Position numbers and translations under genes: made by a program. The notes under the pieces were generated by a model. That model was given only the letters and a program-made list of their open reading frames with translations. It had not been told where the DNA came from and did no database searches. Source: a virus (taxonomy: Duplodnaviria; Caudoviricetes). From it: 64,000 nucleotides of DNA. Shown here one piece after another: positions 56,626 to 58,248 of this stretch. Positions within the stretch are counted from its first letter, which is position 1. The number at the start of each line of letters is the position of its first letter. Where the stretch lies: IMG/VR virus record IMGVR_UViG_3300032334_001433, positions 64,001 to 128,000 of that record; one strand, 5' to 3'.

Positions 56626-57691
56626 AATTTTTATTGTAGATTTAGAATCGGTAGATACGCGATACACAGGACAATGGAAACGATATGTACCCAAATTACT
56701 TAAAAAGGAATGTCATGACATCGAAGTTATATGTGGGCCTGCTGATATTCCTAGTGCCACTACTCCTGGCGCCTTTCTTAATTTTGGTGGCACTAATATC
56801 TATAAGTCTGCACAAGTTGAGCAAATGGGCCGTTTATTTGTTAGTGGATCCGTTAATGCTAATGATCATTTTTTATTTACTGACGCTTGGCATCCTGGCA
56901 TTATTAACTTAAAATATATGAGTGAATTGTTGCAGATCCCTGTAACGATTCACGCACTATGGCATGCCGGCAGTTATGACCCTCAAGATTTTTTAGGTCG
57001 CCTTATCGGAGATGCTCAGTGGGTTAGACACGCCGAGCAAAGTTTCTTTCACGCTATTGACCATAACTATTTTGCTACAAATTTTCATATTGATTTGTTT
57101 GCTGATACATTTAGCGAAACAGTAGATGATGAGTGGAAATTAACTATGATTGAGCAAGGTAAGATTGTTCGTTCAGGTTGGCCAATGGAATATATGGTTG
57201 ATACATTAGATAATTATAATACTACAAAACAAGATATTATTTTATTCCCGCATCGTATTGCTCCTGAGAAACAAGTTGAAATTTTTAGAGATCTTGCAAA
57301 GCAATTGCCTCAATATGAATTTATTGTTTGTCAAGATAAACAATTGACTAAACATGAATATCATGAGTTATTGGGTAGAGCTAAAATTGTGTTCAGTGCT
57401 AACTTGCAGGAAACACTAGGCATTAGTTGCTACGAAGGCGCATTAGTTGATGCTATTCCTATGGTGCCAAATCGTTTGTCTTATAGTGAAATGTATAATG
57501 ATATATTCAAATATCCAAGTGAGTGGACAGAATCATTTGAAGCATACGAATTACATCGACAAGATTTATGCTACAAAATTATTCAATACATGAATAATCA
57601 CGATCAATATAAGTATCAAGTTCGTAAACAAGCATCAGACTTAACGGAAAAATTCTTTTCTGCTAATGTATTGACATCAATGTTTAAGTAA
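56618..57691 (+). CDS. Second GT-B glycosyltransferase
   Basis: FPHRIAPEKQ and ETLGISCYE (E-x7-E) motifs. Confidence 0.75.
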   Translation: MSKIFIVDLESVDTRYTGQWKRYVPKLLKKECHDIEVICGPADIPSATTPGAFLNFGGTNIYKSAQVEQMGRLFVSGSVNANDHFLFTDAWHPGIINLKYMSELLQIPVTIHALWHAGSYDPQDFLGRLIGDAQWVRHAEQSFFHAIDHNYFATNFHIDLFADTFSETVDDEWKLTMIEQGKIVRSGWPMEYMVDTLDNYNTTKQDIILFPHRIAPEKQVEIFRDLAKQLPQYEFIVCQDKQLTKHEYHELLGRAKIVFSANLQETLGISCYEGALVDAIPMVPNRLSYSEMYNDIFKYPSEWTESFEAYELHRQDLCYKIIQYMNNHDQYKYQVRKQASDLTEKFFSANVLTSMFK

Positions 57692-57699
57692 TATATAAT
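57671..57699 (+). promoter_or_regulatory. Sigma70-type promoter for queD
   Basis: TTGACA (57671-57676), 17 nt, TATAAT (57694-57699). Confidence 0.8.
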
Positions 57700-57705
57700 A
57701 CATCA

Positions 57706-57767
57706 CATAGCGGTCTATCGGCATCGTCCCGCTTTATAAATTCCGCCGCCTATGATTAACATAGGAG
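57706..57767 (+). promoter_or_regulatory. Candidate preQ1-I-like riboswitch in queD 5' UTR
   Basis: H-type pseudoknot AGCGG/CCGCT plus CGGC/GCCG with an A/U-rich L3; RBS-sequestering hairpin CCTATG/CATAGG. Confidence 0.5.
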
Positions 57768-57774
57768 AATAACC

Positions 57775-58248
57775 ATGGCAAAATACATTTCTACAAAAAC
57801 TTATAACCAGATTGGTCCCGTAGCATATAGACAATGGCGTGCAGATAGTCATTGTAATTTGATTCACGGATATGCACTCTCATTCCATTTAGAATTTGAA
57901 TGTGATACATTAGATGCTCGCAATTGGTGCATGGACTTCGGTGGATTAAAACCTCTTAAAGGTCTACTTGAGGATTGGTTTGACCACACATTATTAGTTG
58001 CTCAAGATGATCCAATGCGAGAGCATCTATTACATCTAGGCACATTAAAATTAGCAAAGATTACAGAAGTTGAAAAGACTGGATGTGAAGGTATTGCTGA
58101 TTTTCTTTATGAATATATTAACACAATTTTCTTACCCAACTATGGCGAAAAAGATCGTGTTTGGTGTTGCAAAGTACAAGTACGAGAAACAGATGCTAAC
58201 ATGGCAATGCGTGTTGGACATAGAGAAGATAACGAATTTAAAGATTGA
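57775..58248 (+). CDS. queD: 6-carboxy-5,6,7,8-tetrahydropterin synthase QueD
   Basis: HCNLIHGY, DFGGLK, FDHTLL and GCEGIA motifs. Confidence 0.9.
   Translation: MAKYISTKTYNQIGPVAYRQWRADSHCNLIHGYALSFHLEFECDTLDARNWCMDFGGLKPLKGLLEDWFDHTLLVAQDDPMREHLLHLGTLKLAKITEVEKTGCEGIADFLYEYINTIFLPNYGEKDRVWCCKVQVRETDANMAMRVGHREDNEFKD

Follow-up and report, generated by a model that had tools for sequence, protein, structure and literature searches.

The leader of a QueD-like gene in a lake phage (Duplodnaviria; Caudoviricetes) almost certainly folds into a real, conserved and uncatalogued RNA pseudoknot. The gene lies in the stretch of DNA analysed here, hereafter "the window": 64,000 nt comprising bases 64001-128000 of IMG/VR record IMGVR_UViG_3300032334_001433, which is 202,665 bp long and has direct terminal repeats. 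The pseudoknot is conserved among related phages, competes with a helix that covers the translation start region, and is associated with one type of gene. Its covarying stems, invariant junction bases and an expression platform sharing a strand with the aptamer are the generic anatomy of a riboswitch, and the element is probably a small-molecule riboswitch; if it is one, we are fairly confident that it acts as an ON switch. For the explanation as a whole, we lean towards the leader being a translational ON switch for the queD-type gene, and a member of an uncatalogued, almost phage-only family of cis-regulatory H-type pseudoknot aptamers.

A preliminary description of the window, made from its sequence alone, had proposed a riboswitch-like pseudoknot in this leader, overlapping an element that sequesters the ribosome-binding site, and had read it as a preQ1-I-like switch that turns queD off. 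Every sequence string it quoted lies where it placed it. The conserved pseudoknot and the overlapping sequestering element are borne out by the comparisons below; the register of one helix, the proposed alternative state and the direction of switching are revised.

Architecture of the queD leader

The elements of the leader are as follows, with P denoting paired regions and L loops.

57671..57676, + strand: -35 hexamer TTGACA of a consensus sigma-70-type (T4-like early) promoter; 12/12 matches together with the -10 hexamer, 17-nt spacer
57694..57699, + strand: -10 hexamer TATAAT; transcription is predicted to start near 57706
57709..57713, + strand: P1 5' strand AGCGG, pairing with 57729-33
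57714..57719, + strand: L1 UCUAUC; a variable first base, an invariant C-U and a spacer of variable length
57720..57726, + strand: P2 5' strand (P2a) GGCAUCG; includes U57724 of a conserved U.C mismatch, then C57725 and G57726
57727..57728, + strand: L2 UC; C57728 is invariant and occupies the same place as the ligand-pairing C of preQ1-I
57729..57733, + strand: P1 3' strand CCGCU, partner of 57709-13
57734..57743, + strand: L3 UUAUAAAUUC; A is invariant at positions 3, 5 and 7, as is the closing U-C
57744..57750, + strand: P2 3' strand (P2b) CGCCGCC; C57749 and C57750 also belong to the hairpin below
57749..57765, + strand: hairpin sequestering the Shine-Dalgarno (SD) sequence, CCUAUG (57749-54), loop AUUAA, CAUAGG (57760-65); covers AGGAG
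57763..57767, + strand: SD sequence AGGAG, 7 nt upstream of the ATG
57775..58248, + strand: the regulated gene, encoding a QueD-like T-fold protein of 157 aa (Pfam PTPS, E 3e-15; phrog_2389, E 1e-40) with a CxxxHGY motif

The strong sigma70 promoter (TTGACA 57671-76, TATAAT 57694-99) and the hairpin over AGGAG had both been described before and hold as described. With the ATG at 57775, the leader is 69 nt long. Among 150 distinct related upstream regions, 23 contain a promoter matching at least 10 of the 12 consensus positions, as against 1 of 150 shuffled regions; the -10 hexamer ends 6-12 nt before P1, and the aptamer is therefore predicted to lie at the extreme 5' end of the transcript. Folded alone, the leader of the window has a minimum free energy of -15.7 kcal/mol (z = -0.74), which is no better than shuffled sequence. 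The case therefore rests on comparison with relatives, and single-sequence folding was not used as evidence.

Both helices of the pseudoknot covary among related phage leaders

Our search of IMG/VR with the QueD-like protein returned 489 relatives, of which the best 80 were kept; the same motif is present in the leaders of 63 of these 80. In 37 distinct QueD-anchored aptamers, assembled with no RNA pattern imposed, the unpaired bases are already invariant. IMG/VR was also scanned with two patterns that differ at the end of L3. With this end fixed as UCUGC, and A or G allowed at a position hereafter called R (position 3 of the pattern's L2), there were at least 119 matches; among those listed, 108 have a perfect 5-bp P1, seven have four of the five pairs and four are chance matches, so that at least 115 are true motifs. 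With the end fixed as UCCGC and the R position fully free, there were at least 118 matches, and 83 among the matches listed have a perfect P1. The pseudoknot is thus common to at least about 200 IMG/VR phage leaders. A covariance model (R1) built from the QueD-anchored alignment has a single match in the genome from which the window comes, at window positions 57707-57755 (60.3 bits, E 2e-21). It finds a single strong copy per record in all 34 long motif-bearing records, and its scores at other loci range from 18 to 67 bits.

A MAFFT alignment of 127 aptamers (A2) broke P1 across a gap, and two alignments fitted to the covariance model (A3 and A4) were used instead. P1, which had been described as AGCGG 57709-13 pairing with CCGCU 57729-33, is paired in 98.6% (A3) or 100% (A4) of cases. 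Its second pair varies between G-C, C-G and U-A and its third between C-G, A-U and U-A; the 5' strand occurs as AGCGG, AGAGG, AGUGG, ACCGG or AUCGG, and the 3' strand matches each. P2, the loop-to-tail helix, is paired in 81% (A3) or 87% (A4) of cases, with compensatory changes at nearly every variable pair (e.g. GACUU/AAGUC, GACAA/UUGUC, GAUAC/GUGUC, GGUGU/ACACU, AUGC/GCAU, GGUG/CACC and GGAC/GUCC). Across P1 and P2, 90-92% of cells are paired. A first control on P2 and a tail-swap control were uninformative because relatives share P2 and tail sequences; they were replaced by counting pairs in fixed columns and by shuffling. Covariation scores are 0.51 (A3) and 0.49 (A4), compared with 0.16 and 0.15 for shuffled alignments; none of 500 shuffles reaches the real score, and sliding the pairing partners gives at most 0.11. 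Covariation among related queD leaders, which the preliminary description had suggested looking for, is therefore present.

The same comparison changes the register of P2. The preliminary description paired CGGC (57719-22) with GCCG (57745-48), whereas the register common to the family pairs GGCAUCG (57720-26) with CGCCGCC (57744-50). In the family register, P2 extends into what had been taken as L2 and L3, with U-C-R after P2a lying opposite Y-G-C before P2b, for a total of about seven positions. The R-Y pair is A-U in at least 115 motifs of the UCUGC scan and G-C in at least 83 motifs of the UCCGC scan, with no exception among the matches listed; in alignment A4 it is G-C in 56 cases, A-U in 32 and unpaired in none. 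The neighbouring C-G pair never varies, and the U.C beside it is conserved as a mismatch. In the window, the R-Y pair takes the G-C form (G57726-C57744), and P2 has five Watson-Crick pairs (G57720-C57750, G57721-C57749, C57722-G57748, C57725-G57745 and G57726-C57744) and two mismatches (A57723.C57747 and U57724.C57746). Since the R-Y and C-G pairs belong to P2, the true L2 consists of two bases, N-C, in which the C is invariant.

The invariant C of L2 is C57728, the base before the P1 3' strand to which the preliminary description had drawn attention. In 176 aptamers from both the A-U and G-C subfamilies, the base before it is U in 99, A in 48 and C in 29. The other single-base mark that had been proposed, a U directly after the P1 5' strand, is not conserved (U 59, C 37, A 31): the first three bases of L1 are UCU in 59 leaders, CCU in 37 and ACU in 31, and L1 plus P2a spans 8-15 nt. 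L3 is 10 nt long with the consensus N-W-A-N-A-N-A-Y-U-C. Conservation in L3 thus takes the form of adenines at alternate positions and not of a run of A. Positions 4 and 6 of L3 share 0.89 and 0.87 bits of mutual information, respectively, with the third (middle) pair of P1, the level of real base pairs: C-G goes with a pyrimidine at position 4 and A at position 6, and A-U or U-A with A at position 4 and a pyrimidine at position 6. The rule is the same across different expression platforms. It suggests that L3 reads the P1 groove; shared ancestry could contribute to the coupling. Three points were tested specifically in this analysis: the extension of P2, with a switch pair that is either A-U or G-C; the coupling of L3 to P1; and the association with DpdL described below. 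The first two are new.

The P2 3' strand is also complementary to the translation start region

P2b and the bases that follow it are complementary to the translation start region, and this complementarity takes several forms. The hairpin of the window, CCUAUG/CAUAGG(AG), occurs in about half of the family, and one relative has the compensatory form CCUAUA/UAUAGG. Other leaders pair (A)UGYCAUC with GAUGRCA over the start codon, with the covarying variants AAGUCAUC/GAUGACUU and GUCAUUG/CAAUGGC, or pair UGUCUUC with GGAGACA; the G-C subfamily has ACUCC/GGAGU. Bases of P2b take part in the longest anti-start helix in 149 of 153 leaders of the A-U subfamily and in 49 of 65 of the G-C subfamily, and a helix of at least 6 bp is found in 75% of leaders, compared with 9% when the strands are shuffled. 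With median energies of -6.8 kcal/mol for the platform hairpin and -5.5 kcal/mol for the extended P2 duplex, the two structures are nearly isoenergetic. When the aptamer is blocked, the mean probability that the SD sequence is unpaired rises across the family from 0.35 to 0.71. The leader has no terminator-like site, which indicates translational control.

Because P2b is itself the anti-SD or anti-AUG strand across the family, formation of the pseudoknot should free the ribosome site, which is the reverse of the OFF logic that had been proposed. The alternative state on which that logic drew, a helix formed by the 5' end of the leader, fares no better: among the 73 leaders of this platform type, full pairing of its distal half (CAUAG with CUAUG) is possible in only 11, and the other platform types are without it.

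We propose the following mechanism. When the pseudoknot is not stabilized, the P2 3' strand would pair with the translation start region instead; in the window, C57749 and C57750 would join the CCUAUG/CAUAGG hairpin, AGGAG would be buried and translation would be low. A ligand that locks the pseudoknot would withdraw the P2 3' strand, the hairpin would lose two G-C pairs, and the ribosome site would open. L3 probably lies in the groove of P1, and C57728 may be the specificity base that reads a guanine-like face of the ligand, by analogy with preQ1-I (PMC11625349).

Several observations weigh against this ON mechanism, or against the strength of the case for it. The leaders are related by descent, such that the shuffle controls overstate significance. 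In the window, blocking the family-register pseudoknot raises the unpaired probability of the SD sequence only modestly, from 0.30 to 0.47, and does not open the AUG; family-wide, AUG accessibility does not rise in this crude blocked-aptamer model (0.30 against 0.28). The repetitive CCGCCGCC tail permits the CGGC/GCCG register, with four Watson-Crick pairs and a duplexfold energy of -7.0 kcal/mol, and this register keeps the SD hairpin of the window (SD unpaired probability 0.12). The best anti-start helix in 16 of the 65 G-C-subfamily leaders lies just downstream of P2b and does not overlap it. Swapping tails between leaders shortens the helix only from 6.2 to 5.2, a small drop because relatives share tails. 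Lastly, an ON switch on a biosynthetic gene is unusual, and known preQ1 riboswitches are OFF switches.

The element resembles preQ1-I in topology and matches no Rfam family

A cmscan against all Rfam families at E <= 10 returned only noise for a 91-nt slice containing the leader, a 1.5-kb slice and 14 relatives (10, plus four of the G-C subfamily). Neither preQ1-II (RF01054) nor preQ1-III (RF02680) was matched in any of these all-family scans. The preQ1-I model (RF00522), which has a gathering score of 39 bits, reaches at best 9.5-14.4 bits over the whole phage genome, always away from the leader. Of the proposal that this is a preQ1-I-like switch, the similarity of fold topology stands and Rfam membership does not. 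Membership of preQ1-I was rejected: there is no covariance-model match, the base after the P1 5' strand is variable, the L3 consensus differs and the SD sequence lies outside P2. We regard it as unlikely that the element is a true preQ1-binding member of that class. Judged on the modelled fold, it appears to work like a preQ1-I-type pseudoknot aptamer with inverted output logic, and is not a detectable member of that family.

preQ1-I (types I-III, e.g. Bacillus subtilis queC, Thermoanaerobacter tengcongensis, Carnobacterium antarcticum and Escherichia coli yhhQ) is nonetheless the closest topology. Both are H-type pseudoknots of similar size, with a 5-bp P1 capped by two G-C pairs and a P2 formed with the 3' tail; both have an invariant C immediately 5' of the P1 3' strand, preceded by U or A, an adenine-containing L3 that apparently reads P1, and a position before 7-deazaguanine pathway genes. 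In preQ1-I, the specificity C is preceded by U in type I and by A in types II and III (PMC11625349). The differences are equally clear. L1 is N-C-U plus a variable spacer in the phage motif, and U or UU in preQ1-I. The L3 of preQ1-I is A-rich and leads directly into the P2 3' strand, whereas the invariant adenines of the phage L3 occupy alternate positions ahead of an invariant Y-U-C; with positions 4 and 6 covarying with P1, this pattern is compatible with groove contacts, following a consensus other than that of preQ1-I. The phage P2 exceeds that of preQ1-I in length and contains an invariant C-R/Y-G segment as well as a U.C mismatch. preQ1-I captures the SD sequence or a terminator strand in P2 and is OFF, whereas the phage P2 3' strand is an anti-SD or anti-AUG strand, which would give ON. 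In addition, the phage motif occurs almost only in uncultured phages.

Other known systems share parts of this design. Translational ON riboswitches in which an aptamer competes with an anti-SD helix include the Vibrio vulnificus add adenine riboswitch and the guanidine-III pseudoknot. Their logic is the same, with a ligand-stabilized pairing removing the strand that sequesters the start; they differ in being unrelated in sequence and fold, and the genes under their control usually serve to consume or export the ligand. The mRNA of phage T4 gene 32 has a small H-type pseudoknot at its 5' end that serves autogenous translational control. It is like the phage motif in its size, type and place on the mRNA of a T4-type phage, but it is a protein nucleation site without conserved pocket-like loops, precedes a different gene, and has no sequence similarity that we could find. 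preQ1-II and preQ1-III are also pseudoknotted, associated with queuosine-related genes and active on the ribosome-binding site. They are, however, far larger than the phage motif, their HL-out pseudoknots having a hairpin embedded in them, and both are OFF switches (PMC11625349). Our literature search found no report of a riboswitch for phage queD, PTPS or 7-deazaguanine.

We propose a ligand with a guanine-like Watson-Crick face because the junction C is invariant. Such a face is common to preQ0, preQ1, 7-carboxy-7-deazaguanine (CDG), 7-deazaguanine, guanine, GTP and pterins such as dihydroneopterin triphosphate (H2NTP), the QueD substrate. Candidate ligands are the 7-deazaguanine-pathway metabolites CDG, 7-deazaguanine, preQ0 and preQ1, and the pterin substrate H2NTP. 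ON logic would be easier to reconcile with a substrate or a demand signal than with an end product.

The motif is almost confined to uncultured phages

A pattern scan of 185,579 cellular genomes gave 121 matches, about the number expected by chance, and only one is a true motif. It lies on a 5.5-kb contig binned into a Bacteroidetes metagenome-assembled genome, and this contig is probably viral. blastn of two leaders against 50,697 GenBank phage records gave no match, and the motif was not found in the cultured relatives Acidovorax phage ACP17 and Xanthomonas phages BUDD and X1, whose QueD-like proteins are 63-72% identical. The motif is thus almost confined to uncultured phages, and is essentially absent from cellular genomes and GenBank phages.

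Additional, incomplete copies occur in a few records. One record has a second, degenerate copy (L096:4-54; 25.8 bits) with UUCGC replacing UCUGC; it precedes an open reading frame (ORF) at 68-997 that encodes a 309-aa protein with the class I S-adenosylmethionine-methyltransferase motif VLDLGSGTG, directly upstream of the full motif and queD. Three others have half-copies consisting of the P1 hairpin only (model positions 3-28, ~21 bits; L029:2309-2335, L451:4826-4853 and G007:C1:5225-5251), about 600 nt upstream of the full copy. These P1-only copies could be remnants or decoys.

The motif is associated with a 7-deazaguanine pathway that lacks QueC

Of the ORFs downstream of the motif, 110 of 113 encode QueD-like proteins. 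In three exceptions that were checked (L069, L174 and L185), a small or unrelated ORF comes first and queD follows immediately as the second gene; in a fourth (L204), the downstream gene encodes a divergent PTPS-related protein. The first genes of the motif-controlled operons in L174 (6412-6750) and L185 (4432-5160) encode, respectively, a 113-aa cupin-like protein and a 243-aa protein whose match to a tRNA methyltransferase PHROG is faint. All 110 QueD-like proteins have CxxxHGY where the QueD signature has CxxxHGH (PMC10516641). The first zinc histidine also appears to be replaced (AYRQW vs AAHRL). Judging from these motifs, the CxxxHGY proteins may be a distinct T-fold subfamily, with putative activity.

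The neighbourhood of queD in the source genome is T4-like, with UvsY, UvsW, a gp55-type late sigma factor, a DexA-like exonuclease and gp47/gp46-like nuclease subunits. The pathway-related genes upstream of queD in the window are:

51417-52277: QueE-like gene
52342-53031: FolE gene
54903-56189: weak tRNA-guanine transglycosylase (TGT)/DpdA-like protein, 428 aa (TIGR00430, E 6e-5)
56182-56625: 147-aa protein with a DpdL signature (LADPHRHIF, which fits LxxxHRHxF)

LxxxHRHxF is the signature proposed for the CDG decarboxylase DpdL (PMC10516641). The whole cluster spans 51417-58248, in the order QueE-like, FolE, DexA-like exonuclease, 455-aa ORF, 428-aa TGT/DpdA-like, 147-aa DpdL-signature, 357-aa ORF and QueD-like. 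Genes of the 455-aa, 147-aa and 357-aa types are recurrent neighbours of queD in many related phages, and in many phages queE and a conserved gene of the 455-aa type lie directly 3' of queD. The C-terminus of the 357-aa protein has a Pseudomonas phage homologue annotated as a family 4 glycosyltransferase. Two further sigma-70 promoters lie in the window, at 54784-54812 (12/12) and 61983-62011 (11/12); the former sits inside the 3' end of the 455-aa ORF, just 5' of the TGT-like gene.

QueC was not found in the genome of this phage. Of the 34 motif-bearing records, 28 encode a DpdL homologue, including all three records that are at least 90% complete; QueC gave only weak, N-terminal PP-loop matches in 5 of the 34, and yhhQ was not found in any of them. 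Because DpdL is frequent in these records, QueC only weakly matched and yhhQ not found, we assign the RNA motif to a QueC-less 7-deazaguanine DNA-modification pathway of the 2'-deoxy-7-deazaguanine (dDG) type. One record encodes a 303-aa PP-loop ATPase (LCLSGGLDSE) directly upstream of the motif (L069:1832-2743), and the weak QueC matches in the five records are to similar ORFs of 300-313 aa. A PP-loop ATPase of this kind may be a QueC-like amidotransferase or ligase of the pathway.

Alternative explanations

We considered three other explanations for the leader. The preliminary description's model, in which P1 and P2 in the CGGC/GCCG register (57719-22/57745-48) adjoin and stabilize the CCUAUG/CAUAGG hairpin, such that a product of the pathway represses queD translation, follows the usual feedback logic of biosynthetic genes. 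The topology and invariant C do resemble those of preQ1-I (PMC11625349), the CGGC/GCCG register is the thermodynamically favoured one in the window (-7.0 kcal/mol) and is compatible with the hairpin (SD unpaired 0.12), and 16 of 65 G-C-subfamily leaders have an anti-start helix with no P2b overlap. However, this register takes G57745, whose family partner is C57725 in an invariant pair, and C57746, the base opposite U57724 in the conserved mismatch. The adjacent 57726-57744 pair covaries perfectly in the family register, a rule that the window obeys. Moreover, the model depends for its ON state on the alternative helix that is not conserved, P2b is itself the anti-SD or anti-AUG strand in most leaders, and no preQ1 covariance model matches. 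We therefore consider a preQ1-I-like OFF switch improbable. A ligand-free element is similarly improbable. The RNA could be a thermosensor, an mRNA-stabilizing 5' structure, or a co-transcriptional folding timer in which the pseudoknot forms first, a burst of translation follows and the leader then refolds into the closed hairpin. In favour of such an element, an aptamer at the extreme 5' end would fold ahead of the synthesis of the start region, the two states differ little in energy, and 5' terminal structures can protect mRNA. A simple timer or stabilizer would not, however, call for about 15 unpaired positions that are invariant over at least roughly 200 leaders while the stems vary freely, and the strict tie to one metabolic gene indicates a metabolite signal.

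The pseudoknot could instead be a translational operator whose binding protein comes from the phage or the host; one possibility is the QueD-like T-fold protein itself. T4 offers precedents for such translational control: RegA regulates early mRNAs, and gene 32 is regulated via a 5' pseudoknot. The phage studied here is T4-like (UvsY, UvsW and late sigma factor), regA is annotated near queD in its cultured relative ACP17, the motif is tied to one gene family, and the invariant loop bases could equally well be explained as protein contacts. By contrast, a very small element with a buried, triple-rich architecture and an invariant C at the helix junction is typical of the small-molecule pockets of H-type pseudoknot riboswitches (PMC11625349). 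A protein that stabilizes the pseudoknot would activate translation, and positive autoregulation is uncommon; in addition, the QueD-like protein persists in the closest cultured relatives, which lack the RNA. A protein operator is thus unlikely, and we continue to prefer a ligand-dependent ON switch.

Implications

Direct experimental handles on the element come from the well-defined covarying model, which includes P1, the coupling between L3 and P1, and an extended P2 whose switch pair is A-U or G-C. If the ON mechanism is correct, this would be a natural preQ1-I-like fold with inverted logic and perhaps a new ligand; it would be informative on how specificity changes in tiny aptamers, and would provide a compact ON switch for synthetic biology.

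Riboswitches are typically bacterial, and those known from phages are for the most part copied from classes of the host. The motif described here is conserved in hundreds of uncultured lake phages, and the gene that it would control is predicted to encode the enzyme at the entry to a DNA-hypermodification pathway, by which phage DNA is protected from restriction. We tentatively suggest, as a possibility that falls a little short of our general preference for an ON switch, that this is the first almost phage-only riboswitch class, a preQ1-I-like fold rewired for ON control that senses a metabolite of the QueC-less, DpdL-type pathway (CDG, 7-deazaguanine or the branch-point pterin H2NTP). Such a switch would time or license the first committed enzyme of the 7-deazaguanine pathway during infection. 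An almost phage-only class, if confirmed, would show that phages evolve metabolite sensors of their own.

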